NCBI RefSeq assembly: GCF_050920415.1 | Contig: NZ_CP169309.1 | Direction: 5' to 3' (one strand) | DNA length: 64,000 nt | Source: Escherichia coli | GTDB lineage: Bacteria > Pseudomonadota > Gammaproteobacteria > Enterobacterales > Enterobacteriaceae | In this document: positions 2,085 to 34,932 of the stretch, one piece after another | Numbering within the stretch: the first letter of the stretch is position 1 | Layout: each line of letters opens with the position of its first letter | Translations under genes and position numbers: made by a program | Notes under the pieces: model-generated | Database searches by the model: none | What the model was told of the DNA's origin: nothing | What the model saw: the letters and a program-made list of their open reading frames with translations, nothing else

Positions 2085-3121
2085 AGTGCTGCCGCGTTGT
2101 AATATTCGTCAGTGTCCGGGGTCATCAGCGCCTGTTCAAGACGTTGCTGTTGTTCGTTATCGCCCGCCAGCACGGCGGTTTGCTGCGGATTTAACCCCAG
2201 TTTGCGGAACAGTTGCAGGTCTTTATCTTCTTCCGGATTCGGTGTGGTCAGCAATTTGCAACCGTAGAAAATCGAGTTTGCGCCAGCCATAAAGCACATC
2301 GCCTGAGTCTGTTCGTTCATCTGCTCGCGTCCGGCAGAAAGGCGCACGTATGAGGTCGGCATCATGATCCGCGCTACGGCAATGGTGCGAATAAAATCAA
2401 AGGCATCGACATCATCGTTATCCGCCAGCGGCGTGCCTTTCACCTTCACCAGCATGTTGATTGGTACGCTTTCCGGCGGCGTCGGCAGGTTTGCCAGTTG
2501 CAGCAATAATCCGGCGCGATCTTTTACCGTTTCGCCTAAGCCAACAATGCCACCTGAGCAGACTTTGATCCCGGCATCGCGCACTTTTTCCAGCGTGTCG
2601 AGACGTTCCTGATAAGTGCGTGTGGTGATGATATTGCCGTAAAACTCCGGCGAGGTGTCGAGGTTGTGGTTGTAGTAATCCAGGCCGGCGTTCGCGAGGC
2701 GCTGCGCCTGAGATTCACTCAACGTGCCCAGCGTCATACACGCCTCCAGGCCCATCGCTTTTACCCCCTGCACCATCTGTTCCAGGTACGGCATATCGCG
2801 TTCGTGGGGGTTCTTCCACGCCGCGCCCATGCAAAAACGCGTCGATCCCGCCGCTTTCGCTTTACGCGCCGACTCCAGCACCTGTTCAACTTCCATCAAC
2901 CGCTCAGCTTCCAGTCCGGTTTTATAACGCGAGCTTTGCGGGCAGTATTTGCAATCTTCCGGACAAGCTCCGGTTTTAATTGACAGCAAAGTACTGACCT
3001 GCACCTGACGAGGATCGAAATGCTGACGATGCACCTGCTGCGCTTCAAACAGCAGATCCAGCAACGGTTTTTCAAATAATTCTGTGACTTGCGACAATGT
3101 CCAGCGTGGGTGGTGAGCCAT
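2081..3121 (-). CDS. bioB: biotin synthase BioB (radical SAM)
   Basis: 346-aa [44 protein letters not shown]... with CPEDCKYC cluster motif. Confidence 0.95.
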
Positions 3122-3166
3122 GGGGCTTCTCCAAAACGTGTTTTTTGTTGTTAATTCGGTGTAGAC

Positions 3167-3200
3167 TTGTAAACCTAAATCTTTTCAATTTGGTTTACAA
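3167..3200. promoter_or_regulatory. bio operator (BirA binding palindrome) in divergent bioA/bioBFCD control region
   Basis: Inverted repeat TTGTAAACC-N16-GGTTTACAA between bioB and bioA starts. Confidence 0.7.
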
Positions 3201-3207
3201 GTCGATT

Positions 3208-4497
3208 ATGACAACGGACGATCTTGCCTTTGACCAACGCCATATCTGGCACCCATACACATCCATGACCTCCCCGCTACCGGTTTATCCGGTGGCGAGC
3301 GCCGAAGGTTGCGAGCTAATTTTGTCTGACGGCAGACGCCTGGTTGACGGTATGTCGTCCTGGTGGGCGGCGATCCACGGCTACAATCACCCGCAGCTCA
3401 ATGCGGCAATGAAGTCGCAAATTGATGCCATGTCGCATGTGATGTTTGGCGGTATCACCCATGCGCCCGCTGTCGAGCTGTGCCGCAAACTGGTGGCAAT
3501 GACGCCGCAACCGCTGGAATGCGTTTTTCTCGCGGACTCCGGCTCCGTAGCGGTGGAAGTGGCGATGAAAATGGCGTTGCAGTACTGGCAAGCCAAAGGC
3601 GAAGCGCGCCAGCGTTTTCTGACCTTCCGCAATGGTTATCATGGCGATACCTTTGGCGCGATGTCGGTGTGCGATCCAGACAACTCAATGCACAGCCTGT
3701 GGAAAGGCTATCTGCCAGAAAACCTGTTTGCTCCCGCGCCGCAAAGCCGCATGGATGGCGAATGGGATGAACGCGATATGGTGGGCTTCGCACGTCTGAT
3801 GGCGGCGCATCGTCATGAAATCGCGGCGGTGATCATTGAACCGATTGTTCAGGGCGCTGGCGGAATGCGCATGTACCATCCGGAATGGTTAAAACGAATC
3901 CGCAAAATGTGCGATCGTGAAGGTATCTTGCTGATTGCTGACGAGATAGCCACCGGTTTTGGTCGTACCGGCAAACTGTTTGCCTGCGAACATGCGGGGA
4001 TCGCGCCGGACATTTTGTGCCTCGGTAAAGCCTTAACCGGCGGTACGATGACCCTTTCCGCCACGCTCACTACACGCGAGGTTGCGGAAACCATCAGTAA
4101 CGGTGAAGCTGGCTGCTTTATGCATGGGCCTACTTTTATGGGCAATCCACTGGCCTGCGCGGCAGCAAACGCCAGCCTGGCCATTATCGAATCTGGCGAC
4201 TGGCAGCAGCAGGTAGCGACTATTGAAGTACAGCTGCGCGAGCAACTCACACCCGCACGTGACGCCGAAATGGTTGCCGATGTGCGCGTACTGGGGGCAA
4301 TCGGCGTGGTCGAAACCACTCATCCGGTGAATATGGCGGCGCTGCAAAAATTCTTTGTCGAACAGGGTGTCTGGATCCGGCCTTTTGGCAAACTGATTTA
4401 CCTGATGCCGCCCTATATTATTCTCCCGCAACAGTTGCAACGTCTGACCGCAGCGGTTAACCGCGCGGTACAGGATGAAACATTTTTTTGCCAATAA
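3208..4497 (+). CDS. bioA: adenosylmethionine-8-amino-7-oxononanoate aminotransferase BioA
   Basis: ORF 3097..4497; true start at ATG 3208 ([20 protein letters not shown]...), 429 aa. Confidence 0.95.
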
Positions 4498-4555
4498 CGG
4501 GAAGTCAACGTGAGGGTTTCTGGCTACACTTTCTGCAAAAAAGAAAGGAGGTTTC

Positions 4556-5032
4556 ATGAAACTCATCAGTAATGATCTGCGCGATGGCGATAAATTGCCG
4601 CATCGTCATGTCTTTAACGGCATGGGTTACGATGGCGATAATATTTCGCCGCATCTGGCATGGGATGATGTTCCTGCGGGAACGAAAAGTTTTGTCGTCA
4701 CCTGCTACGACCCGGATGCGCCAACCGGCTCCGGCTGGTGGCACTGGGTAGTTGTTAACTTACCCGCTGATACCCGCGTATTGCCGCAGGGGTTTGGCTC
4801 TGGTCTGGTGGCAATCCCTGATGGCGTGCTCCAGACACGTACCGATTTTGGTAAAGCCGGATACGGTGGCGCAGCGCCGCCGAAAGGCGAAACCCATCGC
4901 TACATCTTTACCGTTCACGCGCTGGATGTAGAACGTATTGATGTCGATGAAGGAGCCAGCGGCGCGATGGTCGGGTTTAACGTTCATTTCCACTCTCTGG
5001 CAAGCGCCTCGATTACTGCGATGTTTAGTTAA
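4556..5032 (+). CDS. ybhB: PEBP-family kinase-inhibitor homolog YbhB
   Basis: 158-aa ORF MKLISNDLRDGDKLPHRHVFNGMGYDGDNISPHLAWDDVPAG...; lies on the bio side of attB(lambda). Confidence 0.9.
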   Translation: MKLISNDLRDGDKLPHRHVFNGMGYDGDNISPHLAWDDVPAGTKSFVVTCYDPDAPTGSGWWHWVVVNLPADTRVLPQGFGSGLVAIPDGVLQTRTDFGKAGYGGAAPPKGETHRYIFTVHALDVERIDVDEGASGAMVGFNVHFHSLASASITAMFS

Positions 5033-5122
5033 TCACTCTGCCAGATGGCGCTATGCCATCTGGTATCACTTAAAGGTATTAAAAACAACTTTTTGTCTTT
5101 TTACCTTCCCGTTTCGCTCAAG

Positions 5123-5137
5123 TTAGTATAAAAAAGC
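5123..5137. other. attR core (lambda att common core, prophage/ybhB junction)
   Basis: TTAGTATAAAAAAGC (reverse complement of GCTTTTTTATACTAA); flank reads as attB arm cttgagcgaaac on host side. Confidence 0.88.
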
Positions 5138-5282
5138 TGAACGCGAAACATTAAAAACCATTAATATCAATGCGTTACAATATCTTTAGTCTAAAAAATA
5201 GACTACATGATGCTACAAAACACAACATATCCAGTCACTATGAATCAACTACTTAGATAGTATTAGTGACCTGAGACAGAGC

Positions 5283-5322
5283 ATTAGCGCAAGGTGATTT
5301 TTGTCTTCTTGCGCTAATTTTT
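5283..5322 (+). terminator. rho-independent terminator-like hairpin just inside the prophage end
   Basis: 10-bp perfect stem ttagcgcaag/cttgcgctaa with 14-nt loop followed by T6. Confidence 0.45.
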
Positions 5323-5394
5323 TGTCAACGCACTGGGTTAGTTGAATTTACAACCATGCTCAGTTTGGTGATCTCTTTAGGTCGATTGTTATGG

Positions 5395-6435
5395 TTATGC
5401 TCTGCTTGATTCAGTGATTTTGGAATCCTGCATTTTAGTAATCATACCCATAATTTTATGCCTAAGCTTTTCCATTGGGTTTTCGATTAGATAAAAACTT
5501 ACCGCCCCAACTAAGATTGATGCTACCATCGTTGCTATATACATATAGAAACTGATTCCTACGTACCACACACCCATTGCTAGAATCAGGAAGTGCCATA
5601 GGTATATAGAGAAGCTCCATTTACCAATGTAAGACATTAACGGTGTTGACAGAGCCCAAGCAAATACACCTTCTCCATAGCTCATTAGCAGAACAATGAG
5701 TCCAAATATTGGCGCATAGAAAATAAATTTGTTGAGAACCCATCCATCAGTAAACCCACCAGTTAACTTCCACATAACTTTAGGCAGTGCAATAAGCATT
5801 GATACAATAAAGAACAGGAAGGCTATATCAGACAACTCTTGACCAATTTTAAGGAAATTATCGTGATAGAGAAATGCTGCAATCATTCCGCAAGCAAACA
5901 GTGGGAAATACCACATCACCATTCCGCCATACGCACTATCCATCGCAGGGTACAATCCCTGTAGCAATACAGCCAGTGCGAAAATAAGGAATGCCGCTGC
6001 TTTTCCATTGTACACTTTTTGAATTGCGACACCAGCATACGCAAAGAATGGAAGTATGAAGTAGAATTTATACTCAATTGGTATTGTCCAGAAATGAAGC
6101 ACGGCCTCTTTCATCGTTATGATTGAGATTGCCGTATTCAAATCAAAATACCCAAAATATGAATACACGAGAACAGCTATTGCGAACACCGGAAGGATTC
6201 TCATTGTTCTTCCAAGGAAATAACTTAAAAGAGACCGCCAGGAAAATCCGGTAGAAATAAATCTACTGGTTAGCAAAAATGCGCTGAGAACAAAGAATAT
6301 CCAAACACCAAACTGTGAACTTCCACCAAGCATAACCTCATACTCATGAAAATATATTCCTGTAGCGTGGGCTATTATTACAAGGAATACCGCTATTGCC
6401 CTTAGTCCATCAAGAGACTTGATTTTACCTTTCAT
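5395..6435 (-). CDS. acyltransferase-3 family integral membrane protein, probable O-antigen acetyltransferase (lysogenic-conversion type)
   Basis: ORF 5395..6522; multi-TM product with LDGLRAIAVFLVIIAHA motif near N-terminus; AT-rich; last gene before att, as oac in Sf6. Confidence 0.7.
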   Translation of the reverse strand: MKGKIKSLDGLRAIAVFLVIIAHATGIYFHEYEVMLGGSSQFGVWIFFVLSAFLLTSRFISTGFSWRSLLSYFLGRTMRILPVFAIAVLVYSYFGYFDLNTAISIITMKEAVLHFWTIPIEYKFYFILPFFAYAGVAIQKVYNGKAAAFLIFALAVLLQGLYPAMDSAYGGMVMWYFPLFACGMIAAFLYHDNFLKIGQELSDIAFLFFIVSMLIALPKVMWKLTGGFTDGWVLNKFIFYAPIFGLIVLLMSYGEGVFAWALSTPLMSYIGKWSFSIYLWHFLILAMGVWYVGISFYMYIATMVASILVGAVSFYLIENPMEKLRHKIMGMITKMQDSKITESSRA

Positions 6436-6518
6436 TTCTTTCCCAGATATGGAGTGAACATCTGCGAAAATGTAGCACATTTCAAGGTAAACAAGAAGCG
6501 CATCCATGCGCATTTTCA

Positions 6519-8438
6519 TCACCCTGCCTTGGTGTATGTCCAGTTAAATGTTGTTGTTCCCTGGCTTGTGATGGTTACAATCCTTCCTGTCACTGTAAAT
6601 GATATCAACCCTCCTGACTTAAGCGGAGTTAAAGTAAGTGTTGTTCCGTCCCACATGGCAAGCTGAAGCGAAGAGAAATTTGTTCCACTGCTTTCTGCCC
6701 AAACGCTTATCAGGTACATCCCTTGGCTATTTGGCAGTTCAAACAACGTAGTTGCTACGTTAGCTGCAACAGCCTGAGTTCCTTTCGCTGTGTACACTGC
6801 TGGCAACTGATTACCTGCAGAGCTTCGTGATTCAACATATGAGCCTGAAGTTTGCGTCCCAGTTAATGAGCAGTCAGTAAATACTCCATTCCCTGTGCTG
6901 TAAGTTGATATTACAGGAGTCCCACCAGTCGGAGCCTTAAACCGGCATCCCTCAGCAATTATTTTTGCTGTTGAGTCTGTCAGCAATGTGTTTGGGTATC
7001 CAGAGCCAGTGTAGGTTATTGATTCGCTATCAAGGAAGCTATCGGTACTTGATTTTATGTTAACAATGCTTGTGCCTGTTGCAAAGATAAATGCTGCTGT
7101 CCCACTCCCCGTTGTTTGCATTGAGTTTCCATGCCCGGCCAATCCTGATATATGGGCAATAGTATCATTAAGTTTTATATACGACGCAGTAATTCCATTT
7201 GTATTTTTTATTATATTAGACTCACCATCATACCCTGTAATAGTAAGACACTTACATCCAGAAAAATATAACCCTGAGGAATCAAATGTATATTGCGACC
7301 CGTCAACTGTGATCTGGTCTCCTGCACAGTTTATTAGCTGAGGAGACAGGCAATTTACAACATACCATGCCTGTGCTGCATCCAGCACATAACATGTATC
7401 CCACTGTATTGTCGTTCCGTTCGCCTTATAGAAACCATGTGCAACTCTCCTCGCCCATACCTGGGTATACTTTGTTAGGTAATTTCCAGAGTCATCATAT
7501 ATGGCCCACCATGCACCATCAACCTCAACATTTTTAATGTGCATAACGCCTGGTGAAGTAGTTCCTCCATCAATTAGAATGCCAATTTTACCATCATTGC
7601 CAGTAGGTGATGTAGGGCGTCCTCCATCGTAAAAAATATAGACATTTTCAATATTTATTGTATTAAACGCTGCGTGGTAATGGAAACAAGCTATATTTCC
7701 TATTACTGCTATGAAAGTTTCCGGCCTATTTATGTTGCTGTTTGTTTCGCCATTTATTGTGCAGTTTGAATTCATCTCTATCGTTGCATTTACGAAGTAA
7801 GTTCCAGATGTCAATAATACATTCCGCCCTGTATTAATTGCGGCCTGTATGCCTGCATAGTCAAGAGACTGAGTTAGTGATGTTACGAATGGATAAACAG
7901 CCTGCGCCGCTGATAGTGTGGAGAATTTCTCGCTGAGTGGATGCAGAGTTCCGTCAGCTGTTGCACCGAAATCCTTGGCTGAAATGAAGTTGGTATTTTT
8001 ATCATGTTGAGTTAAAGCTATTGAGCCGATATATGGCTGCTTAACTGCAACTAGTGCATCTCCCATTCCATCAGCATCGCTTTCTAACTGCTGCTTAAAC
8101 TGATCAGGGTCATACTTCAGCACATTAGGAAAATAGAACTGCCGTGCACCATACGCATTATATACAGCCATAGAATGGCCTTGCACAGTTACGAACTTGG
8201 CAATCTGTCCGTTATATACAGGGTAACCAGCGGCGTTAATGATGATTGGTTGCGAAACAGGAACGTGAGAGCCGTCTTCGTTCTCTACATAAACCTGAAT
8301 CTGGTTTTCTGGATTTACTGGGTACGTGTCAATTTTACCGATATAAATTTTGCCATTGGCAACCGCTTTAAAAGAACGCGCCATAGTGAAGAGTTGCGAA
8401 GGCATGCTTACCACAACATTTGCGGTGATATCTGACAT
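6519..8438 (-). CDS. tailspike protein with P22-like N-terminal head-binding domain and divergent C-terminal receptor-binding domain
   Basis: ORF 6519..8486; from ATG 8438 reads [61 protein letters not shown]..., matching the P22 gp9 N-terminus; SD GGAG upstream. Confidence 0.85.
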
Positions 8439-8559
8439 TTCATTGCTCCAGACGAATGATATGATGCAACCATGATGTGATTGCATACCGAAATGGTACT
8501 ATTGAGTATTTATCCAGTAGGTTACGATGCCATTCCACCCAACTGGTGAGGCATCAAGG

Positions 8560-8820
8560 ATGTACAGCAAATACGACGAGGCGCAGTTTCACTTGAGACT
8601 TCCGCATGAACTCCACGCGAAAATTAAGCAGCGTGCGAAGATGAATAACAGGTCGCTGAACTCAGAGATAATTGCAGCGATTGAAGAATCATTGGATAAA
8701 CAAAGCTCTGCATCAGTTTACATTGACGATGCAGAGCGTATGGCAGAACAACAATCTGATATGGTTAAGAAAATGGTTTTTGAGACGCTCAAAGAGCTAT
8801 ATAAAAAAGACAGCAGCTAA
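8560..8820 (+). CDS. mnt: Mnt-like ribbon-helix-helix repressor
   Basis: ORF 8527..8820; MYSKYDEAQFHLRLPHELHAKIKQRAKMNNRSLNSEIIAAIEESL...DAERMAEQQSDMVKKMVFETLKELYKK resembles P22 Mnt; divergent from late genes. Confidence 0.7.
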   Translation: MYSKYDEAQFHLRLPHELHAKIKQRAKMNNRSLNSEIIAAIEESLDKQSSASVYIDDAERMAEQQSDMVKKMVFETLKELYKKDSS

Positions 8821-8840
8821 CTATCAGTTACGGAGGATTT

Positions 8841-8918
8841 ATGCAAAGAGATATGCTGAATATTGCGTTCTACATATTTGGTTTTTGCACGTTCCTGGTG
8901 TTTGCGAAGCTATTCTGA
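8841..8918 (+). CDS. 25-aa hydrophobic peptide (MQRDMLNIAFYIFGFCTFLVFAKLF), hypothetical
   Basis: ATG preceded by strong SD GGAGGA at 8832-8837; single predicted TM helix; below the ORF-track size cutoff. Confidence 0.35.
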   Translation: MQRDMLNIAFYIFGFCTFLVFAKLF

Positions 8919-10907
8919 CAACGCATCAGACTTGGCACCTTGAGTCAGGGCGTTAATGGCCTTTTGCGCCTGCTGCATGGCTTTCTCAAACGCTGTTGAT
9001 CCGCGTGGGGTGTTTGCCATTCGGAGCATTGCATTTCTGAATGGCTCGCTCTCATAGGCGCGAGTAAGAAGTCCGTAGCTTACCGCTGCGCCAGTTGTCG
9101 CCGGGTTCATTGCCGTCCCATATCCGATAATGAACGGGATGGTTTGCTGCCCTGTTGGTGTTGTTACTGCTGCTTTTGCAGCCTGCTGCGTGGATTGCAG
9201 GTAGTTTTTTAATCCTTTCAGATAAGCAGCGTCCTGCCCCTTAAATGTGATGCCAGTCTGGTTTTGCAGGATATTAAGCTGCCGAAGGAACTGGTCAGGG
9301 GATCCACCTGATTTCTCCATCGCCTTTCCAATGATGCCATTGCGCATTTGCGCCCTGCCAACACGACCAACTGAGTTATACAGCGTCTTAATTTCCGATT
9401 TGTTCTTGCTGAATAGCATGTTGTTGACAACTTCCGGCGTCAGGTCGCCTTTCATGAGAACATTCTTCAGCCTGGTATTCTTTAGTTTCGCCGCTTCGTC
9501 AGCGTAGACGGCATTGGCCTGCTGATATTTACGGAGAGTATCGTTGCCAAGATTCTGACCAATGGCACCATTGATATCGTCTGTCATTGCCTTGTAAACG
9601 CGCTGAATGGCAGCATCGGAACGGTTTGGTAACACTGATCGTTCCCCCTTCACGTCAATTCTGAACTGGCTGCGCAGATCGCTTAATTGCTTCAAATCCA
9701 GATTTACCGGACCATCAGGACCAGCATTGCGAACAAGCTCATCACGATAGGACTGAAGTTTTGAAATAGTCTCGTTATCGGCGACCTTACCAAGCTTCTG
9801 CAGGTTAGATATTTCTGTATCAATCTGCTGAATTGCTCGAGCAGGCTGGATATTGACTCCCGCCATTGCATTCTGAACCTGCTCAAGACGGTTCCCTGCA
9901 GCACGACGAATTCCTGATGTTTTCGCTTTAAGGCTGTCAATAACAACAGCTGGATCATACTCACCGAATTTATCAGCAAATCTCTGCACCAACTGGCTTC
10001 TCGCTTCCTGTTGCGTTGCTCTCATTCCGCTTGTGCCAGCCAGGGGGATATTTTCCGCTGTCGTCTGCGCCATTTTCCCGACGCGGGAAGTAGGCTGTAA
10101 CAGGTCTGTGGTGTGCAGAGGAACTCCTTCACGCTCTGCAAATCTGATAGCCTGCTGCGCTTCTGGCGCAATAGCACCACGAACGCCACGATAAGCAGCA
10201 CCTAATCCACGTCCGGCAGCGTTAATAGCACCGCCAGCCAGCACACCAACGCCTAAATCGGTGGCGAGTGCTTCCGCATCATCTTTCGCACTATTTGCAG
10301 CAAGTGATCCAACTGCGTTTTCTGCTAGAAGGCGAGTTGCTCCCTGAGCAATTCGACCTGCAAGTGTTGGTGCCTGTACCGCCGCTCTCTCAACGCCAGC
10401 AGGAGTGAGGTAAGGCAATGCTTCAGCAAATACCCTTCCCTCTGTCGTTTGTGGAGTCAGCGCACCTTGCTGAAGGCCAAAGTCCTGCTCTAATCCCTGC
10501 GTTGTTACTCGTGGCGCTGGTTGATATGTACCATAGCCAATACCGAGTTTACCGCCAGCCCAAGCCGCAGCGCTTGTTACAGCATCGGCAACTGATGCAG
10601 GTATGTTTGCCACGTTCACGCCAGCCTGCACCAGTCCGCGACCAGTTTCTTTCACGGCTTCACCAAGATCAGACATAAATCCAGTTTGCTGTGGTTGTTG
10701 CTGTGCTTCTGGTTGTTGTGTCTCCACTGGCTGCACAGATGGCAATGGATAGGCAGCATAGAAAGCTTGCTTAGCCTGCTCTGCATTTTCTCCGGCTTGC
10801 GGGGCCACGACTTCATTGAAGTATTGCTCCTGAGCCTGCGATTTTTGTTCTGGTGCTAACGCCTGATACTGTGGAGAGGCGATAACATCTTTCCATGCTT
10901 TAGCCAT
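8910..10907 (-). CDS. ejection (injection) protein, P22 gp16-like
   Basis: 665-aa ORF; position after gp20-like gene; Ala/Gly/Gln-rich composition typical of P22-like ejection proteins. Confidence 0.7.
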   Translation of the reverse strand: MAKAWKDVIASPQYQALAPEQKSQAQEQYFNEVVAPQAGENAEQAKQAFYAAYPLPSVQPVETQQPEAQQQPQQTGFMSDLGEAVKETGRGLVQAGVNVANIPASVADAVTSAAAWAGGKLGIGYGTYQPAPRVTTQGLEQDFGLQQGALTPQTTEGRVFAEALPYLTPAGVERAAVQAPTLAGRIAQGATRLLAENAVGSLAANSAKDDAEALATDLGVGVLAGGAINAAGRGLGAAYRGVRGAIAPEAQQAIRFAEREGVPLHTTDLLQPTSRVGKMAQTTAENIPLAGTSGMRATQQEARSQLVQRFADKFGEYDPAVVIDSLKAKTSGIRRAAGNRLEQVQNAMAGVNIQPARAIQQIDTEISNLQKLGKVADNETISKLQSYRDELVRNAGPDGPVNLDLKQLSDLRSQFRIDVKGERSVLPNRSDAAIQRVYKAMTDDINGAIGQNLGNDTLRKYQQANAVYADEAAKLKNTRLKNVLMKGDLTPEVVNNMLFSKNKSEIKTLYNSVGRVGRAQMRNGIIGKAMEKSGGSPDQFLRQLNILQNQTGITFKGQDAAYLKGLKNYLQSTQQAAKAAVTTPTGQQTIPFIIGYGTAMNPATTGAAVSYGLLTRAYESEPFRNAMLRMANTPRGSTAFEKAMQQAQKAINALTQGAKSDALSE

Positions 10908-12295
10908 TAATCACCCCATAGTGAAGAAAAGTTACTGCTGGCTGCTGGCTGTGATACCTGTGCAGGTTGAGATTGCTGCCGCTGAGATTTACCAACATTA
11001 ACGTTATATTGTTGGTTGTAATTGTTGGTGTATTCCTGAATCTCACGAATCGACTGCTGCATAGCCTCCGGGCTTGAATAGTCAACCTGCGGCATCCCCT
11101 GAAAATACATCTTCGCTTCTGCAACGGTGTTAATACCACTGGCACCCATGTCCCTTGCTGCCGCCACACCCTGATTCTGCATTCTGCCCTGAATCCGTTG
11201 TGCTGAGTTATATAACTGGCGCTGCTCTTTTCCTGTTAATCTGCTGCGAACATCAGCACCAATTGCTGGATTACCTGCACCGCCTGTCATTCCTGTCATG
11301 AAATCGAGAGCAGAAGCGTCTGCATTTGCGATCGCGTCGATATCCTTCTTCATGGCATAGTTTTGTGCTGATGCAGACGATGTTGCAGGCGCAGCGATTG
11401 AACTGGCAGGGACACGAACCATATTCCCCTCGTTGTCGATGCCTTCGTAGAACGCATTAGCCCCAGCGCCATGAAGCTTCCCGCCTACCGTTACAGTTCT
11501 GCCATCTGATAACTGAACTGTACGCTCATCATTCCCAGCGATTCCTCTTGTTGACGCTCGCTGCATTGCCAAATCCTGACCTCGTCGCGCAGTAGAAGAA
11601 GATAAGTCCTGACCGCGCATCGTGATGTTCTGGCCTCGTGCTGTTAGCGCCTCGCCAGCCTGATTGCTGCGGATTGTCTCTGCAAGTTTTCCGCGATCAA
11701 TCTCACGACCAGCCATCTTGTCCTGAACATTGAAGTAATCAATTGGACCAAGAGCAGCCATCCCAAGGTGATCAACAAACTCACCAAATCCTGAAGGATT
11801 CTGCTGATACATCTGAGCAACGTTGTTAGGGTCAACACCTACGCGAGTCAGTTCCTTGGCGTTGTTTTGCAGCCATGATTGCATCGCTTCTGGAGACGAT
11901 GCCGCAAGGCGAGCGCCAGCCGCTAAGGTGCCGATAGAATTACGCTGGTCTTCATCAATGAATCCCATGCCTTTACGAACGGATTCAATCTGGTCTGGAT
12001 ATTGAGTAGCCAACTGACGCAAAGCACCGCGATCACCAGACGCATAAGCATTAGCGTATGCCTGCTGAAATTCTTTCTGCCGCTGAGCCTGCTTTTCCTG
12101 CTGAAACACCCCCGCAATACCTGAAAGGCCTTGCAAAGCAGTCAGCCCAACATTGTTAGCGCCTGAACGCTCAATATCATTGTTCTGCCTGATAAGCTGA
12201 AGCGTATTGCCGATGTCATTTACGCTCGGAGCGTTTGAGTTGACGCCGCCGATACCAGCCAACAATCCGCCGTTTGTTCCTTGCCAAGTAGCCAT
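10907..12295 (-). CDS. ejection (injection) protein, P22 gp20-like
   Basis: 462-aa [20 protein letters not shown]...; synteny 14-7-20-16. Confidence 0.7.
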
Positions 12296-12304
12296 GATTA
12301 CCCC

Positions 12305-12838
12305 TTAAAACAACGAGCCAAGCAATCCGATACCAGCACCAATGCCAGCGCCCCAAGGCGTTGATGTTCCCAAAAGGCTGGCAAGACCTGCACCGGCAAT
12401 CGCACCAGACGTGCCACCGCTAATTGCAGTCTGAAGACTTGATGGTTTATTGGCATTAGCAGCGGCAAGTGCTGCGCTTTGCTGTGCAATGCTGCTCATG
12501 TTGTTGGCGTACGTCTGCCCGGCGTTTGCCTGACCTTGCAGCGCACCAAGCCCAACGTTTGCCAGATTGTTGTAATTGCTCATCTGGTTTGATAACCAAG
12601 ACTGACCGAGTGTAGGCGCGATTGTAGCCAGTTGATTGCTTGTGGCTGTCGAACCAAGTCCTCCCGTAGCCTCCGCAGCAGCAAGACTCTGGTAACGAGC
12701 CTGACCTGCAAGGTCTTTATACTGCTGAGAGTTGTAATACTGATTAAGTGCCTGCCCCTGACCTTCTAAACTGGAAAGGTTCTGAAGCTGGTTAACATAC
12801 TGCTCCGCAAGAGGCGTGAACGGAGCAAGGTTTTTCAT
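12305..12838 (-). CDS. ejection protein, P22 gp7-like (C-terminal 177 aa; see finding on split gene)
   Basis: ORF 12305..12865; ATG at 12836-12838 overlaps stop of upstream 53-aa ORF in ATGA arrangement. Confidence 0.55.
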   Translation of the reverse strand: MKNLAPFTPLAEQYVNQLQNLSSLEGQGQALNQYYNSQQYKDLAGQARYQSLAAAEATGGLGSTATSNQLATIAPTLGQSWLSNQMSNYNNLANVGLGALQGQANAGQTYANNMSSIAQQSAALAAANANKPSSLQTAISGGTSGAIAGAGLASLLGTSTPWGAGIGAGIGLLGSLF

Positions 12839-12996
12839 GATCGTCTGCCACTGCTGATTTTGCAATCTGCAGCATACTTCTGAGCTTCTGCTGCATACTT
12901 TGCGCTTTTATCAGAGCTGCCACCTTTCCCGCCTTTTTCAGGGCAATAAGGTTCCTCGCCGCGCAGTTTTCTGCCCAGCTTAAATGCATATAACAT
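12835..12996 (-). CDS. 53-aa ORF (MLYAFKLGRKLRGEEPYCPEKGGKGGSSDKSAKYAAEAQKYAAD...), possibly the N-terminal part of the gp7 homolog
   Basis: ATG at 12994-12996 with SD GGGAGA; not in ORF track (under 60 aa). Confidence 0.4.
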   Translation of the reverse strand: MLYAFKLGRKLRGEEPYCPEKGGKGGSSDKSAKYAAEAQKYAADCKISSGRRS

Positions 12997-12998
12997 GG

Positions 12999-13457
12999 CT
13001 ATCTCCCGTGATTCAGGAAGTCGATTAGTTCTTCGCGTGTGGCGCTGTAAAAAGTCACGTCATCCACGCCTTTGAAGTATTTCTTGATGGTTCCTACACG
13101 CTTAAGGCCAATCATTGCGCAGTACATCTGACCGTGGCGGAATTTGCGTGCGGCGAACGATGTGACACACTGGACGGTGGTGTTAGTCAGAATGTATCGC
13201 CAGAACGCCAGCCCAATTTCCTTGCTGAAGCCGCGAATCTCTGGCAGGTACATGGCGTGGCAATCGAATGTCAGCGGCTGAATCTCCTGATAGTAAACAA
13301 TGCCGCCGAACTGCCCGTGCACGTTCACCTCAAAGTAACGGCAATCAGGTTTGTAGTCGTATCCATCACCGTTGTTGCTCCCGGCAATAATGTCAGGGTG
13401 ATTTCCGACTGCTTCGATCAAGTCGATGTTTCGCGTTGGTTTGAACTGAATCATCAC
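12999..13457 (-). CDS. head assembly protein, P22 gp14-like
   Basis: 152-aa ORF; synteny between tail needle and gp7. Confidence 0.6.
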
Positions 13458-14302
13458 TGCTCCGCAATGATTTTGATGGTTGTGGCAGTAAACGCCGCAC
13501 CATTTGACTGAATGGTTAACGTACTGCCATTTGTGGCAAGAAAGCCGTCTTTATCCACGCTGAAGAACGTAGCTAACAGGATGTTATCGGTTGTTGTCGC
13601 CGAGTTGCGACTGCTTACCAGTGTGTCAGGAACAGAGCCGGAAAAGCTTAGTTGCATTGACCTGTTGGCGGTTCCGCTGGGCCACGTCCCGACGATCGAC
13701 AGCTTGAAGAACAAGGTTTTGTTCTCGTTGAACACAACCATCTTGTTGTTAACGGTGTCGAAGAATGGTGTCAACGAGCCGGATGACGGCGTGAGCGTTT
13801 TCAGTAGGCTAACAAGGTTGGTCGGCGCTGTCGGAATGGTTACTGATACGCCAGAGTAAACAACCTCTGACTTCTTGCGCGTGGTTGCATAATCCAGAGC
13901 ATCAATGCGCGATTCATGATCTGAAACCTGCGATTCCAGCGACTGAACTCTGGTATCAAGCGACGCAATATCGCTTTCATTCTGAGCGATTCGCGTTTCA
14001 TGTTCCTGAAGAGTTGATTCTGCCTGGCTGATTCGCTCCTCATGATTAACAAGCGTTGCTTCCGCAGCAGAAATTCGCTGCTCATGGTCAGCGAGAATCA
14101 CATCCTGCTCATCGTTCCTGACCTGTGCATCATAAGCGCCCTGTCCGGCCTCGTTGGCCTTGTTAGCCACGTTACCAACATCAGTACCTTGCGCGATAAC
14201 GTACAGCAGATACGACTGCGAGAAGATATTGCGTGGAAGGACTGATGTATCGAGCCGCGTAGCCTGGATGATTACCGGCACATTGAGATTCGAATCCGCC
14301 AT
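13454..14302 (-). CDS. tail needle protein (P22 gp26-like N-terminus, extended C-terminal knob)
   Basis: [43 protein letters not shown]...[20 protein letters not shown] matches gp26 N-terminus; 282 aa vs 233 in P22. Confidence 0.8.
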
Positions 14303-15720
14303 TACTCAATCCTTATCTGAGCGCCAGACAGAGTTACAGGTGACTTCGTGATAACGCGCAATTTGAAGCCGACATTTTTCCTGATGCGCCCGACACGCTT
14401 CCACAAAACGCGTTTGTCGTAAACGAACGGTTCATTCTGCTCAATCATCTGCTCACGACCGTAATTTATGCCGTCAGTGGTTGCAGAGAGGAACAGGCGG
14501 TCGGCGTACTGCGCAACGCCAGTTGAAGATTCAACTTCAAGGTCGAAAACTCTGGCGTTATCTGCTTTGAACAAAGGAGTAAACAGCAGGTGTTCCTGTT
14601 GCTTGTCGTACTGACTGCTGATATCGAACTGCAATTTCCCGGTCACGGATTCCAGCTTATCGCCGCACGTTATCTGATTGCCTTCGTAAATGAAGTCGAT
14701 AGCGCGGTACACATCGTCATACAGGCCTGTTTTCAGCACACACCATTGCGGACCATTGGCGCTTGAAGATGCGTCGTACACCAGAACATGGCGCGGAAGA
14801 TGGATAATCAGCAGCTCATGCGCATCAAATCGCAGAGACTCCATCACACCATCAGCCAGTTCATCAGCAGTGTAGGAGCGGAGAATTTTCTCAATGCTCG
14901 CGCTGGCGATTGGTGACACCTGACCGGAGCCAATGATATACACAGACGGCGCACCTGTTGCCGGATTGCTGATAAACGCATAAGAATCAGCGAATGGCGT
15001 TTTGCAGTAAGTCCCGGCAATGCCTTTCTGCACCATCAGCGATGGCTGGGCGACATACAAAGCAGAACCAACGGTGGTTGCACCAGTCAGGGAAAAATAC
15101 TCAATCGTCGAAGAACCAAAGCAGACGATGAAGTCTCGCCATGTCCCGATACCGATGATGCCGTCCGGCTGCGATTCTGCGCGATATTGTGCACTGTATC
15201 GGTCAGGGTGCGATTCGTCTTCAGGGTCAGTGATAAACCATGAATCAGTTCCGTCTTTTGACCACGCATAACGCCCACGTAAGCGCGTAATGTCGCGAAC
15301 TGAACCTAACTCGTACTGTGTGAATCCGCTGTCTGTAGGCCAGTTTGAGACGGTTTTAACCGTGCCATCATAGCGATACTCGACCAGTTGACCATTAACG
15401 CCTATCGCCTGTGATGTCCGACCATGCGCCATTGATACACGACCACTTCCGTCAACGTCACCGACTTCACTTTCTCCTTTGTACAGCTTGCCACCGCAAA
15501 CGCGATAAACAGCATTCTGCGCCATGTTGTACTCGACACCGCGCGATACACCATTCACATCAGAGCGTTTGGCAATGCCCGGGAATGAGCGAAGATATCC
15601 GCTGCTGTTGAGGATTTCTTTGGGTGTAGCCAACATATTCACTGGCAGATAGTCGATATAGTCGGCGTTTCGGAAATCTTTGCCGACACCTTTCATGAGC
15701 GGAAGTTGCTGAATCGGCAT
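14302..15720 (-). CDS. head completion / DNA stabilization protein, P22 gp10-like
   Basis: 472-aa ORF; synteny after gp4. Confidence 0.75.
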
Positions 15721-16197
15721 TATTCGCTCCCGTTATCGCAAGGTTCCTTTCGGTGGAAGTAATTCCAACCGTTCCACTTCGCCAACTGGTTACCGCTACC
15801 AACAGGCATACGGTTTGGATAACCGGACTTACATTTAGCGGCTTTTGCTCTGTCCATTGCAGACAGTTTGACGAGTCGCTCTTTCCCGTATCTGGCAGTG
15901 GTTATAAGTTTTGCAGGCGCTTCCAGCGCATAATCCGGTGCAATGCGGCAGGCAAGGTTGAAAATGACAGCATTGATAGCGTTATTTGATAAACCGTGCT
16001 CATCGCCCGGATCTGGAGCGACATCTGCATCAGCGAAAATGTAGCCAACGTTGATACCAGGTGACACATCACCGCCAAGCCATTCAGCCATCATCATTTC
16101 AAGGTCGTTGACGCCGTCTTCCATAGACTGCGGTTCGACATCGGTTAACGTGGCATTTGATGCCACACCGAGCTTACGTAATGCCGCAAGAACTAAA

Positions 16198-16220
<23 letters not shown>
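15720..16220 (-). CDS. head completion protein, P22 gp4-like
   Basis: ORF 15720..16316; from ATG 16220 reads [47 protein letters not shown]... resembling gp4 (166 aa). Confidence 0.8.
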
Positions 16221-16458
<238 letters not shown>

Positions 16459-16502
16459 GCTTGTCTCCAGATAAAAAAGGGAGCCGAAGCTCCCTCTGGT
16501 TA

Positions 16503-17798
16503 TCACGCAGTCTGGTTAGGCAGACCAACACCAATTGCCTCTGGTCGTACAGCACATGCTGAATACCACACAGCAATACGGCACTTGCCAGACAGAGTGT
16601 TGATATCACCCTGCGTTGCGAAGATGCCGTTAACACCAATACCTGGAATGCTGAAGGAAGAAGTTTTCATGCCAGCAAACAGTTCATGGGTTACCGGAAT
16701 CGGCTGAGACAGCAGGCGGATTGAGTCATCAGCCCAGAACACGTTAGCGGTGGTTGTTGCCACGTTCAGAACGTTTACCGGAGTGGCATCAGCAAGAGAG
16801 GTGTTTACGTTAGCGTAAGCCTTCTCTTCTTTTGTCAGTGACGAGTCATCCAGCGCAATCGGCTTCGGCGTGATTTCGATGTGAGTACTATGAATCACTC
16901 GGGTGATTGAGAAAGTAGCATCATCAGTCAGCACGTTCTTCGCCATCTGAGATAGGAATTTCACACCAGTGAAGCTGATTTTGTCGCCGCGCTTAAATCC
17001 GGTGGTGGAGGATACGGTCACCGTTGCAACACGGTTGTCGACGTTCTCTTTGTTACCATCGGTATCAAGGGTGTATGCCTGCGGCTTAAACTTCTGCGCA
17101 CCAGAAACAGTTACACCAGTAGCGGTTGACTTGGTAACTGCCGGAAGTTTCGGTGAGCGAAGAATTTCATCAAAGCCAGCAATCTGACGCTGAATAGTAC
17201 CGTTACGATACGCTTCTTCAGGAACGCGCCCAAAGATGTCACCATCTACCAGGTTGCGGCCTGCTTTGCGGTAATCGTCAGGGTTCAGGAAGTAACTGAT
17301 GCCCATATCGCGGTTTAGCTCACGGGAGAACATCAGGCGCTCTGCATCAGACACAAAATCCCAGCCAGACAGGCCAGTAGATGGACCAATTGCGCGGGTA
17401 TCGTGAACAACAAGTGAGCCCATTTCGGTTGCCTGTTTGGCAATTGCTGACTCAATGTTATTCGCCAGTTTTTTGGCGGATGCCTGGATGCGGCGACGGT
17501 AAGAACGCTCATCACGCAGGTCATCTGCACGAAGCTCGAAGAAATCGTTATCCGGATTGCCCATGTTGCATTTCACGGAGAGTTCCAGAATCCCGGTTGC
17601 GTTGCCAGTTAAATCCCAGCCTGTCTGAGTTGGCGCTTCCTGCTCAACAGGCATCCACACGGTGTTGCTTGAACGTTGCATGGATTCTGCCGGAGGGGTG
17701 TATTTTGTCACTTTGGACGCCATTGGCGTCAGGTTCTGGACGGTTTCGATGATTTCATCCAGAGCATATGTGACCAGTTGACCTTCATTTAATGCCAT
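16503..17798 (-). CDS. major coat protein, P22 gp5-like
   Basis: 431-aa [32 protein letters not shown]...[10 protein letters not shown]...GVGLPNQTA closely resembling P22 coat. Confidence 0.9.
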
Positions 17799-18709
17799 TA
17801 TCGAATTCCTTTATTCAGTTGCGCCTTAAGCTTGCGGTACGTCTCTACATCACCTTTGTTTGCTGCCGCTTCCATCTGCTTTTCAATCGCAGAGATATTT
17901 GCAGCAACAGCGTGTCCCTGAATGGGTTCATCAGGTAACGGGGCTTCTGAAACAGACTTGGCTCGAGGCTTGAGAGTTAAACGTTCTGACAGTCGAGTGA
18001 GTTCAATCAGCGCGGATTGCCCGTCCATCGCCAGTAACTGGCGTGTTTTCTCAGGATTAGCACCAAGGTGATACATGAGAGCAGCGGATTTCTCCGGGAA
18101 GAGGCGCATGATGTCGGCACCGACTGCTGGCGGCACCAGTTGCATGAATGCATCCTCTTTCTCCTGATAGTCAGGGATATTGAGCTTTTCCGCTGCGTCG
18201 TAGTGCTTACGGGCTGCCTCGACGTATTGCGCTGATTGCTGGGTGAACTCCTGAGTTTTGCGACCCTGCTCGGCGACAGCCTGGCTTCGTGCGTCCATGG
18301 CCTTGATCTGCCATTCACTGTTTGCCTGCTGGAAGGCAGCCAGTGCGCGGCTCTGGTCATAGTCGTACTTAGCCAGTGCATCTTCGGAAAGATAATCGTT
18401 AGGGTCTGGTTGTTTTGGTAACTCAGGGTTCACCCGCAGGTGCTCCGGCAACTCTCCACGCTTAACCGCTTCCATCTGCTGCTCAAGCTCACGCTGGCGT
18501 TTGCGTTCGATGCGGCGACGGGCAAATTCAGCATTAGTTGCCGGGTCTTGTTTTGGTTTCTCATCGTCTTTCAGGACAATCTCAAAGCCTTCTTCCTGAC
18601 CTGCGCTGTCGTTGGCATTATCGACAACTAAGCCATCAGCAGATGCCGCTGCATGATTGCCGGGCAGGGTTAATTCTTCAGAAGCCTGAATGTCGGTGGT
18701 TTGGTCCAT
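17798..18709 (-). CDS. scaffolding protein, P22 gp8-like
   Basis: 303-aa acidic/helical ORF between portal and coat. Confidence 0.8.
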
Positions 18710-18722
18710 GGTTAACTCTCTC

Positions 18723-20889
18723 TTATTGAGGTGTCTCGGCTACTCCGCCGGAGGGGATTTGAACTTGACGCATAAGATTCGCGAAATCCATGCGTTGTGA
18801 ATGAGTCTGGTCTGCATCTTTAAGAAGCAGCTCAGCGTTAGCACGAGCATCTTTGCTGCGCTGTTGCTGGAATTGACCTACGAGCTTGAGGTACTCACGC
18901 AGTTCTGCCTGCTTGTCGAGGTCCATATTGTTGAAGATTTCTGCAATCTTCGCGGCGTTGAGTTGGTTTTGGGCTTCAACCTTGGCGGCTTCAACCTGAA
19001 TCTGCGCCTGTTGGTTCTCTGCCTTGATCAATTCAGCCTGACCTTGCAGAAGGATACCCTGCGCCTGAATTTGCTCTGCTGATGGCTGCTGCGGCTGCTG
19101 TTGCGCCTGTTGCACCATCTCCATCTCTTCAGGTGTTTCTGGTTTCTTCAGCCACATCATCACCAGTTGCTTGTTCGCGTACTCTCGCATCATCTCGAAC
19201 GCCTTTACCGTCAAGCAGCGTGAAGTATTGCAACATCAGCATCTGGAACTCTGGAGTACCTTGCGGAACCTTGGTGAGTAACTCCTGAATCTCTGCGCGG
19301 TTCTGTTCCTTCATACTCTGGAAGGATGGTCCAACGTCGGTATAGCACTCATAGCGACCGCGAATGTCGTTGAGTGTGACCACATTACCGGACTGGTAAT
19401 CTACAACTTGCGCGTAGAGTTGAACGTCTTTCTCGCTACCATCTTCAAGTGTCAGCGTTACATGACGAGGAACGTCATAAATATCATTGACCATTGAAGC
19501 ATAAATCTCGCCATCACGTCGCATTGCGGTAGCAAGGTTATCCTGAAACACGTATGTCTCAAGGTCTGCCCGCATGTTCAGTTGATTGACGGTATCGAAA
19601 GCGACCTGAGAGTTTGCTGCCTGCGCATCCACACCAAGACTAGCCACCTCTTTCACTGCGTTGGTGGCAGCCTCAAGCATGTAAGCGTTGGCTTGCGGCA
19701 CTTCAGGGTTTTCCATGTAGGAGATTGGACCAATCGGCAGGTCGTTGCCGTTTTCATCGGTCCTGTTCTGCAGATAGTACGGATAGTCATCATTTCCACC
19801 GTACATGTATTCGTAGCCTTCGATTTGCTCAGGGAAGAAGGTCGGTTTCTTCTTCGGTGAACGAGCAACAATATCGGCGTTGAATGACATGATCATGTTA
19901 CGAAGGCGTTGACCGTCTTTCGTCAGCCTTACCACTCCTTCGTAGCACTCCTTGTCACCAGCGAATGACCATTCGCCATATACTGGAACGATTGGAATAT
20001 GCTCTCCGGCTATCTTCTCGCGGTCTTTCAGTATCTGCGTGCAGGTGACGATCGACTTATACACACGCCGACGCTTCACCTTGCGCTCTGCTACCTTAAT
20101 GAATCCACGATTAGCCAGGTCGTCGATGACGTCTTTGATATCCTGCTGGTAATAGCTGACCGGCTCACCTGTCAGCGGGTCGCGGTAGATGAAGACTTTC
20201 TCTTTCTTCTCTTCGACCTCGTAATACTCAGCGACGTAGACGACATCATTCGATACCCACGGAAACAGCCATGTATCGTTTGGATTCTGGAAAGATGGCA
20301 GCGTGTCCGGATCAATACCGTAATCCTCTGCGAACTCTTTCCAGCCATTGCGCGACAAGGCGTTAATCACCGTGCAGTGCTTAGCGTCGCTCTTATCCAT
20401 CTGCTTGCTGTTGGCGTCCCATATGACGTGTGAGCAGGCTTCATGGATTGGCAGGCGTCGGATTACCTGATTGTTGCTTGTTGGATCGTTGTCTTCGTAC
20501 TGCGTGACCAGACGCCATGCACCAACGCCTGACTCTATCTGCTCACGAACGCCAACGTTAACGGCAATTTTTGCCGTATTATGGCGCATATCAGTACGAT
20601 ACATCCCCATCAGCACATCGGCAGCATCAGGATTAGCGCCGTCTTTTGGTCTGAAGAGAACATCGATAGGGTTCCGGCGCATCTCTGCGACCAGCTTCCT
20701 GACCACCGGGCGAACAACATCGAATTGTCCGCGATATTGCAGGGTGGTGTAGTTTGATAGCCAGTCATCCCATTGCGACACTCGGCTAAAATACAGGTCA
20801 TTTGTCGCCTCGGTTCTGGCTTCATCGCTCGCCATCCAGTCTGCGTCAAACTTACACAGAATGGAATTGAGTCTGTTTTCGTCGGCCAT
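18723..20889 (-). pseudogene. portal protein gene (P22 gp1-like) split by a +1 frameshift near 19197
   Basis: ORFs 19129..20889 (586 aa) and 18723..19214 (163 aa) overlap by 86 nt in different frames; junction GKGV|[10 protein letters not shown] is restored by removing one nt; span 2167 nt = 3n+1. Confidence 0.7.
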
Positions 20890-22387
20890 TTAAGTTCTCC
20901 GTGCGATGGGCCTGATTGGGGCTGGTATCTTTTTCTCTTTTGGCTTTTTGATGTCGCGCATCATTTTTGCGAAGCGGCGCATCATGTATGCATAGCGAAC
21001 GGCGGATAGCACGTCGTCGTTAAGCTTGACGATTTTCCCGTTTTCATCACGGTGATAGAGGCGGAACTCCTCAAAGAATGGCTCACAGGTGTTGAATACT
21101 TTGAAGCGACCGTCGAGCATCATGTCTCGCAATTCAGTGATGCCAGGCTCAACAGCGTTACCGCCATCAGGCCATGTCGCATGCTCCTGCAACATCATAA
21201 ATCCAGCGTCCGCATACTGCCCTTTGAGCTGCTCACCGCCGCCCTTCTCGTGCTGGTTTCCGTCATGAGGCCATGCGGTTGGCACTTTATGCGCCCATGG
21301 TTTAACAGCTCCCCACGCCTGAACGGCTGTCTTTTCTTTCGCCTTCCAAACGCGTGAAAGGTAGATTATGTCTGCGTCCTTATCCCACCAAAGCTGAACC
21401 TGCGCCTGCGGGTGATCCCATCCGAAATCCATACCGCCAATTACGTAGAAGTGATCAGGACACTCGAACGCTGACACTTAATCGTCTCTTCCGGTATCTG
21501 GAAGATTCGACCACTACCCATCGTAGGAATACCGCGAGCACGCGCCTCTCTCTCATGCTCAGGATAGGATGCGATGATTTGCTCTTTCTGCTCGTCGGTG
21601 TAGTGCTCAGCGTCATAGATGGTCATGTTGACCACTTTCTGAGACTTGCTGGGATTCTTCAGGAACTTGGTAACAACGTCAGACATCCCCATCAGCGGGG
21701 TAAACGTCAGAATTGAGAATTGCCCGTATTTGTTGGTACGGGTAAGACCTTCGCCATAAATGCTGTATGGTGGCTCTTCGTCAAACCACACGCCGTGGAT
21801 TGTGTCACCCTGCCAGCGAGCACGGCCTTGCGAGTATGGTTTGAAGTAGCAGATTGAAATGCCATCTTCAACGCCATCAGCCGTGTGATGCTTAACCAGA
21901 AGATGATCAACAAGGTTCGGAAAGAAAGGAGACTTCTTCCAGCTAATGATGTCTTCTTTCGGTATGGAACGTAGCCTGGCTCACCATTCTCTTCGATACG
22001 ACCGCACAGGATGCGTTGAGTCGTTTTGGTTACAGTCTCGTTTGTCTCTCCACCAATCCAGAAGACAACAGGCTCATAGAAACGCTTACCTTTCCACTCA
22101 CCGCCATATTTACCATCAGCAGGATAGCCTTTTGTGCCCGGATAACGACCGGTAAGGTGAAACGCGACTTCAGCAGCACCAGTAAATGACTTACCAAGCT
22201 GGTTACCAGCCATAAAACATCGCTCTGGATAGTCATGCCCGGCGTCGATGAACTCACGCTGCTTGCTGTATGGCGTAAATTCATATAGCAGGTGTGTGTT
22301 CCGGTAGTTCTCTTCTTCTTCGAGTAGCTCGAGCAACTCGATTTGCTCTTCGTCGCTCAGGTTATCAAGAATCGCGTCCAGTTCCAC
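20890..22387 (-). pseudogene. terminase large subunit gene (P22 gp2-like) split by two -1 frameshifts (near 21957 and 21478)
   Basis: Three consecutive ORF fragments (21707..22387, 21441..21791, 20890..21477) in three frames; span 1498 nt = 3n-2; WFDEEPP motif in middle fragment. Confidence 0.7.
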
Positions 22388-22853
22388 GGTTGAATAGCTC
22401 CTTGATACGAGAGCGCCGCTTATCGCGATCTCCCTTATCAGGTGTCACGTCTTCAACTTGCGACTGCTCTTTGAGGCCCAAATCACGGGCGATGATGTTA
22501 GCGTTGAGAAGGTCAGCGGCTGCGCCAGAGAATTTCTGGTCGTAGATGACCTGTTCTGCTCGCGTAACGACTTCAGATAAATCTTCTCGCAGGCGATATG
22601 TGCGCCATGTTTCAAGCGTCACATCAATGAACAGAGTGAGGCCGGTAATGGTCATCGCTCGCATCTTGGCGATAGGCTCTTGTATTACTTCACCCTGATA
22701 CGAGAACGCCTTCATCTCCCATAGCGGGTTAGCTTCCACCCACTCGAAGTATTCACAACAAGCAGCCCACAGCGCCTCAGGCGATTCGAATTTAGGATTT
22801 CGCCCATGACTACTGCGGGCCTCCCAAAATCGGTTGCCCTTTGGTGCTGCCAT
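22365..22853 (-). CDS. terminase small subunit, P22 gp3-like
   Basis: 162-aa [49 protein letters not shown]... Confidence 0.85.
22565..22586 (-). promoter_or_regulatory. pac site (headful packaging initiation) inside small terminase gene
   Basis: Minus strand reads GAAGATTTATCTGAAGTCGTTA, matching the P22 pac sequence as recalled. Confidence 0.55.
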
Positions 22854-22932
22854 ATTGATTATTTCCCTTCTGCTTGCTTATCCCATTCATCGCGGAATTT
22901 GGATGGGTTGTCGAAACCTTGAGTTGCCATGT

Positions 22933-23175
22933 TTATGCTCCGGTAGTGAACAGGTCTAACGCTTCCTTCGATTTACGCACCGCTTCGATAGTGCGAGATG
23001 TGAAGTCTGGATTTGCACCGCCATCGTTGTAGTGCAACTTGAACAATTCCAGTTTCAGTTGGTCAGCACCAATGAATGCAAAAGCTTCCTCTGCCGCTGA
23101 ATTGTTCTTAGATAGCAGTCGGTAAATTTCTAACTTGAACTTCTGTTCTTCAGTCATGGGAATAATCTCTGCCAT
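22933..23175 (-). CDS. hypothetical 80-aa protein upstream of terminase
   Basis: ORF-track entry; no recognisable motif. Confidence 0.4.
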   Translation of the reverse strand: MAEIIPMTEEQKFKLEIYRLLSKNNSAAEEAFAFIGADQLKLELFKLHYNDGGANPDFTSRTIEAVRKSKEALDLFTTGA

Positions 23176-23713
23176 TGTTGGCTCCGTTTATCCGTTAAAA
23201 GGGATATCAGTTAAGTTATCCCGTGTAGGGTATAAGCCATTATCAAAGCCACTATGTAGGGAATGGCTTTTGTGATGGCAATAAAAAAGGCCGCCTGAGC
23301 GACCTGTTAGTTGTTCACAACTTCCATTGAAGGTCCAGCATGTCGAAAAATGATCCGCATTTAGGGGGATTTTCCATTCTTGCCCTCTCTTCAGCAGCTT
23401 TGTAATAAGCCATTGGCCTTTTCACACCATCAGCACCAGTGATGTATTCAACGCCTTCCTTCGGATCTTGTTCACGGAAACCATCGCAACCTATTCCACT
23501 TGTTTATCATCGATTCAGTGGATGTCTTTCCATCAGTCCGCCACCACAAAGAATCTTTTTTGCCATAAGGCAGGAGGTTCATCTTTCAGTGGCTGCCAGT
23601 GTTATTTCCCCACTTACTGGCTTGGGTTGTTTCGCTGTACTGCCGTTAACTGGTGGCCCAGAATAAATTCCGGTTTCATTATCAAGCCCACCCATTGATG
23701 GGCTTTGTAATGA

Positions 23714-24016
23714 CTACAGTAACGAACTGCACAATGCGCCTGTATTTCGAGGATGACGCCCAAATACGTTAATCTTCTCGCGAACGCTCTCACTACACAT
23801 TCGCTCTACAATTCGCCAAACAGCCTTTTCAGGTAAAAATTTCGGCGCTAGTGCTGAAATAGCACGCCACATACCCCGACTAAGCGAGCATGCTGTGCTA
23901 CCGAAACTAAAGATGGCGAACGAAATAGACGTGATAAACGCCCAGCACCCAGAGAGAAAAGTTGAGATGCGGTGATAAAGCTTAGTCATGTATTGCTCCT
24001 GTTTTTTGGTTTTCAT
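23714..24016 (-). CDS. hypothetical protein downstream of spanin genes
   Basis: 100-aa ORF-track entry with hydrophobic N-terminal segment; start uncertain. Confidence 0.3.
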   Translation of the reverse strand: MKTKKQEQYMTKLYHRISTFLSGCWAFITSISFAIFSFGSTACSLSRGMWRAISALAPKFLPEKAVWRIVERMCSESVREKINVFGRHPRNTGALCSSLL

Positions 24017-24023
24017 CGCCCGA

Positions 24024-34794: not shown

Positions 34795-34932
34795 GATGGA
34801 GGATATATGAGTGAAGTAACAGATTTAGTTGTTATTGAAAAAGCAAATGCAATGACTGTATTTCAGTCTGCCGACCAGATTGAAGAAATCTGAACCGCCC
34901 CGGGTTTCCTGGAGAGTGTTTTATCTGTGAAC

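Follow-up and report, generated by a model that had tools for sequence, protein, structure and literature searches.

According to its sequence, the region 12305..12996 (minus strand) of the 64,000-nt Escherichia coli stretch analysed here (the window) encodes one gene, for a predicted DNA-ejection protein of the P22 gp7 / Sf6 gp11 type. Unlike its counterparts Sf6 gp11 and WP_000964882.1, the window copy is one base short at codon 45 and reads as 53 + 177 codons. As written, this gp7-type gene spans 692 nt and is either a pseudogene or an intact gene that was mis-sequenced. Judged from the pattern of differences alone, the missing base is probably an error of the consensus (base calling or assembly) and not a feature of the organism's DNA.

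Table 1. Coordinates of the split gene, its surroundings, and the window-specific differences from same-lineage prophages
Feature	Position	Strand	Remarks
ORF-A	12835..12996	minus	53 aa, ATG start
ORF-B	12305..12838	minus	177 aa from ATG; 186 aa if TTG at 12865 used
Shine-Dalgarno GGGAGA	13002-13007	minus	5 nt 5' of ORF-A ATG; upstream sequence ACTTCCTGAATCACGGGAGATAGCC
Missing base	12864/12865	minus	C of GATC, codon 45, gene nt 133
gp14-like DUF2824 protein (PF11039)	12999..13457	minus	upstream neighbour, intact
gp20 / Sf6 gp12-like ejection protein (PF16928, Inj_translocase)	10907..12295	minus	downstream neighbour, 462 aa, intact
gp16 / Sf6 gp13-like ejection protein	8910..10907	minus	665 aa, intact; PF26808 on homologous products
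Tailspike	6519-8438		Head_binding
int, lambda-type integrase	43399-44469		356 aa
ybhB	4556-5032		
ybhC	44604-45887		
Difference, gp7 gene	12623		GATC to AATC
Difference, gp7 gene	12865		GATC loses C
Difference, coat gene	16892/3		GATCG to GATTC (complex)
Difference, coat gene	17558		GATC to AATC
Difference, portal	19199		+T
Difference, large terminase	21471		CC to C
Difference, large terminase	21971		GG to G
Difference, 56-codon ORF	23470		AAA to AA, abuts GATC
Difference, endolysin	24499		C to T, vs one reference only
Difference, endolysin	24796		GATC loses a base

Reading frames and family assignment

The stop codon of ORF-A and the ATG of ORF-B overlap as ATGA. An earlier note on this DNA had reported these coordinates, the 53- and 177-aa lengths, a strong Shine-Dalgarno sequence, and the overlap, all of which were reproduced from the ORFs on the minus strand. 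In ORF-A, native residues 1-44 are continued by 9 residues in the wrong frame (CKISSGRRS) up to a TGA stop; ORF-B comprises native residues 54-230, its start being the native internal Met54. The 53 + 177 pair is a broken gene and not a chance pair of ORFs.

Both ORFs match the Pfam profile PF25688 (P22_gp7, cut-off 28 bits), ORF-A over profile positions 1-46 (E = 4e-24) and ORF-B over 54-230 (E = 1e-96), so they represent successive parts of a single family profile. Once repaired, the 230-aa protein matches the same profile over its full length (1-230/230, 447.2 bits), above the gathering score; the earlier suggestion that the combined ~230 codons correspond to a single P22 gp7-sized protein holds end to end. 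The repaired protein is 100% identical to WP_000964882.1 ('DNA transfer protein') of E. coli W and EC3. At the DNA level the repaired gene has 19 differences from E. coli W and 9 from EC3, all of them synonymous. No match for the gp7 family was found in NCBIfam, and no solved structure was matched by sequence.

In Sf6 (gene 11), Gally, Dewey, phiKp_30, the E. coli W prophage, 88-3493, and EC3 the homologue is one ORF of 693-696 nt; the intact gene of the relatives has 693 nt (230 aa), one more than the window copy. A tblastn search with the repaired protein matched 162 phage genome records, and wherever the match to a phage genome is full-length, as in P22, residues 1-167 align in one frame, the Gly/Ala-rich tail past residue 167 being masked as low complexity. 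The alignment to P22 gp7 and homologues that had been proposed as a check thus yields one continuous protein that is one base short. The single uninterrupted frame of ~229-231 codons typical of the family is absent from the window copy, in which it breaks at codon 45. Sf6 gp11 (AAQ12201.1) differs from the repaired protein in 2 of 230 residues. P22 gp7 aligns in one frame over residues 1-167 with 76% identity; unlike P22 gp7, which has 229 aa, the window allele is of the Sf6/HK620 type with 230 aa.

In Louie, Proteus phage Brookers, APSE-1, and APSE-2 the tblastn match begins only at residue 44-45. These alignments suggest an N-terminal module of ~44 residues that can be exchanged on its own; its putative boundary happens to fall at the frameshift codon.

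Gene order and known ejection systems

According to ORFs and Pfam matches, the gene order in the window is gp10-like, tail needle with knob, gp14-like, gp7, gp20-like, gp16-like, and Head_binding tailspike. This is the conserved order of the gp7 family, found also in Sf6, E. coli W, and others: Sf6 gene 11 lies in the same place between the gp14-like (DUF2824) and gp20-like genes, and P22 has the same order 14-7-20-16. Directly downstream of the tailspike, at 5395-6522, there is an acyltransferase-3 family gene that looks like an O-antigen acetylase gene for lysogenic conversion, comparable to Sf6 oac. In a small ORF upstream of the gp4-like gene, a GGCTCT tandem repeat (16271-16277) is 6 nt longer than in the E. 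coli W prophage, with the frame kept; contigs of two related short-read assemblies stop ~20 nt from this expansion, at 16293-16294.

P22 gp7 is released at infection and helps to build a trans-envelope conduit for DNA. It is packaged in the virion and needed for DNA delivery (PMC8402733, PMC4992974). Residues 1-20 of P22 gp7 are cut off by the host OpdA and largely dispensable, the mature N-terminus being Lys-Gly-Gly-Lys-Gly, and residues 21-154 form the procapsid-assembling fragment (PMC8402733). In the window protein residues 18-26 read CPE and then KGGKGG, so that KGGKG after residue 20 agrees with the mature P22 N-terminus reported in PMC8402733. In a review, the gp14-like place in a three-gene podovirus ejection operon is assigned to P22 gp7 and Sf6 gp11 on the basis of gene order, size, and role (PMC8954989). 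The likeness to T7 gp14, an outer-membrane ejectosome component, is an analogy taken from that literature (PMC8954989).

The missing base and broken copies in other prophages

At the lesion the relatives read GCAGATCTGCAA / GCAGA(C/T)CTGCAA and the window GCAGAT-TGCAA; as written, positions 12860-12870 of the window are GCAGATTGCAA, without the C. The lesion thus lies at 12864/12865, inside the range 12835-12870 that had been singled out for inspection. The closest alleles, those of EC3 and of same-lineage assemblies, have GAT CTG, so the window differs from them by a one-base deletion alone. A compound lesion (deletion plus C-to-T), which a comparison with Sf6 or E. coli W would imply, was dropped, since the EC3 and same-lineage alleles already have the T.

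Among E. coli complete genomes, 634 gave a match, and none of them agrees exactly with the window at the lesion site; a 30-mer spanning the lesion is absent from the GTDB representative genomes. The searches gave no record of ORF-A in its exact 53-aa form, of the 186-aa product starting at TTG, or of the 586-aa fragment of the portal protein.

The exact 177-aa product, in turn, is called on 22 public contigs, and each of the 10 shown (L008-L017) has its own upstream lesion. These are amber TAG codons at codon 6 (K6, 4 contigs), codon 39 (Q39, 2 contigs), and codon 48 (Q48, 1 contig), an IS66 insertion at ~codon 45, a scaffold gap, and, in L015, a one-base deletion at ~codon 22 that leads to the same 53 + 177 layout. 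Three distinct amber alleles are striking; the search, however, is biased to lesions upstream of Met54. None of the 10 split copies supports a native two-gene form, and the gp7 knock-outs in other public prophages are independent and apparently real.

The prophage and its copies in other assemblies

The gene belongs to a P22/Sf6-like prophage at ~5100-44550, between ybhB/bioA and ybhC, i.e., in the lambda attachment region. Besides the integrase, the prophage encodes a lambda-type excisionase (Xis); no tRNA genes were found anywhere in the window. The same prophage occupies the same site in GCA_048027635.1, GCA_000194575.2, GCA_002133425.1, GCA_015518365.1, GCA_020910405.1, GCA_025684375.1, GCA_002965625.1, and the Logan assembly of DRR168434. 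The same-lineage copies are 99.94-99.98% identical to the window, and in all of them GATCTG and the ejection gene are intact. Apart from IS elements, the window is 100.000% identical to the same-lineage assemblies over 1-12255 and 26038-52383 (~37 kb).

As for the IS elements, an IS3-family element (orfA 108 aa, orfB 295 aa; IS629-like by size) is located at 34885-36200 in the early-left region of the prophage and is not present in the same-lineage assemblies, and GCA_000194575.2 and GCA_036681285.1 have an IS in the ead/Ea22 gene instead. GCA_000194575.2, an older draft (L021, L043), has its own homopolymer-length errors in the same prophage: A5 vs A4 splits the gp10-like gene, C5 vs C6 splits the replication O gene, and G3 vs G4 is seen at window position 23877. 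At these sites the window agrees with the other assemblies.

Most complete E. coli genomes are only ~96.4% identical to the chromosomal flanks (43000-64000 and 1-5100), and the three best reach ~98.3%, so the host comes from a lineage with few members among the complete E. coli genomes of RefSeq.

Distribution of the differences

All 10 window-specific differences from the same-lineage prophages fall in 12623-24796 (Table 1). The comparison covered 49.5 kb, of which this stretch makes up 12.2 kb (P ~8e-7 under a uniform spread). One-base indels account for 6 of the 10 and break gp7, portal, large terminase (twice), endolysin, and the 56-codon ORF; the corresponding P of ~1e-4 assumes a rough natural ratio of ~1 indel per 10 substitutions, which is our own estimate. 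The G or C of a GATC is affected in 5 of the 10 differences (P ~3e-10), and the fraction of destroyed GATC sites is 5/25 in the block vs 0/34 in 1-12600. The four indels other than GATC losses are length changes of 1-3-base runs. The earlier note had counted the gp7 break as a possible fifth frameshift in the late operon. A frameshift it is, and the tally in recognised late structural genes comes to four (gp7, portal, and terminase twice), with two further frameshifts (endolysin and the 56-codon ORF) upstream of these genes.

The indels at 19199, 21471, and 21971 are not at GATC. All three read GAACG/CGTTC in the window, and two of them give the 8-mer CGTTCGAG. This context may reflect a strain-specific methylation motif or a k-mer bias of the base caller; GAACG/CGTTC could not be linked to a known methylation motif.

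Short-read contigs of the same lineage end at 11947, 12255, 12667, 16293, 24215, 26038, and 26646, and these ends bracket the block. They suggest that the head-gene block is repeated in these genomes, the second copy being inferred from the contig ends.

Consensus error or real mutation

The clustering of the 10 differences, their share of indels, and their GATC bias are very unlike natural divergence, so a consensus error is favoured over mutation. According to PMC11610603, nanopore errors caused by methylation show up as G-to-A changes and as reduced accuracy at the G and the C within GATC, and they are carried over into assemblies. The block resembles this pattern at Dam GATC sites, showing G-to-A, loss or miscall of G or C, and short homopolymer length errors. 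The stretch 12623-24796 would then be uncorrected long-read consensus with single-base indels and G/C changes at Dam GATC: in a repeated block, hybrid assembly would fall back on the long-read consensus and short-read polishing would fail. At codon 45 the C of GATC would be lost in the consensus, which would shift the frame to the TGA overlapping the Met54 codon. Unlike nanopore Dam-site errors spread across a whole window, the errors here sit in one 12-kb block, so that a repeat escaping polishing must be assumed. Sequencing noise distributed uniformly over the window was rejected because of the ~37 kb of perfect identity outside the block.

A real deletion, recent and private to the prophage of this strain, with gene 7 inactivated amid the decay of portal, terminase, and endolysin, is unlikely, yet several observations fit it. 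The lesions are confined to the prophage, and the chromosomal genes in the window are all intact; prophages are subject to decay, and the IS3-family insertion in this one, absent from the same-lineage copies, is real. Independent natural gp7 knock-outs occur in other assemblies, the substitutions relative to intact alleles are all synonymous, which fits a very recent event, and the three indels outside GATC count against an error. In P22, moreover, gp7 binds procapsids via residues 21-154, and a deletion of 1-20 still gives ~60% of the normal burst (PMC8402733). However, six indels vs 3-4 substitutions are far from a natural mutation spectrum, and five of the ten changes fall on the G or C of GATC, including the complex GATCG-to-GATTC, for which we know of no mutational process. 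After the first knock-out, five more bring selection no gain. In addition, the other 27 kb of the prophage show no differences, and none of these alleles is present in any other assembly.

It is highly improbable that all ten changes are real and due to a process aimed at Dam GATC, e.g., cleavage or nicking with error-prone repair, that peppered 12 kb of head and lysis genes. If so, it would have destroyed 5/25 GATC sites and put gp7, portal, terminase, and endolysin out of action while leaving the rest of the prophage and the chromosome untouched.

Two-gene and programmed-frameshift readings

Where the earlier note left a choice between two translationally coupled genes and a frameshift, the frameshift is borne out, one inserted base restoring the protein, and the coupled genes are not, given that homologues and near-identical prophages have a single 693-nt gene. 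A native layout would yield either a 177-aa protein together with a small N-terminal peptide or, by programmed ribosomal slippage, the full-length product. It could draw on the ATGA overlap, which resembles translational coupling, on the strong Shine-Dalgarno sequence before ORF-A, and on the sequence itself, in which a -1 slip after GAT onto TTG would restore the native Asp-Leu. However, wherever a single base is lost within nt 1-160 of the intact gene, the resulting frame has its first stop at nt 161, a TGA overlapping the Met54 codon (nt 160). The ATGA junction is therefore incidental. Furthermore, no Shine-Dalgarno sequence was found upstream of the ORF-B ATG, and there is no slippery heptamer of the form X XXY YYZ around GCAGATTGCAAAATC. 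None of the homologues examined has the same two-ORF layout, the sole other 53 + 177 case (L015) arising from its own, different deletion, and the gene is uninterrupted in the near-identical copies of the prophage. With no such heptamer and with the shift absent from all relatives, a programmed frameshift was rejected, and the native reading as a whole is effectively refuted.

Implications

If the deletion were real after all, ORF-A would be a 53-aa dead-end peptide, and ORF-B would perhaps be made at a low level via termination-reinitiation at ATGA. The ORF-B product would lack mature residues 21-53, which belong to the part of gp7 needed for procapsid incorporation. The result would likely be a null allele, an ordinary private pseudogene, with non-infectious particles by analogy with P22 gene 7 mutants.

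With a consensus error as the preferred explanation, the consequence is mainly one of quality control. Reporting the 53 + 177 pair as novel coupled genes, or the prophage as heavily decayed, would mislead. The stretch 12623-24796 would better be treated as a low-accuracy block, with the frameshifts of gp7, portal, terminase (both), endolysin, and the 56-codon ORF discounted together. As for the gene itself, it is an ordinary member of the gp7 family, with nothing new about it.
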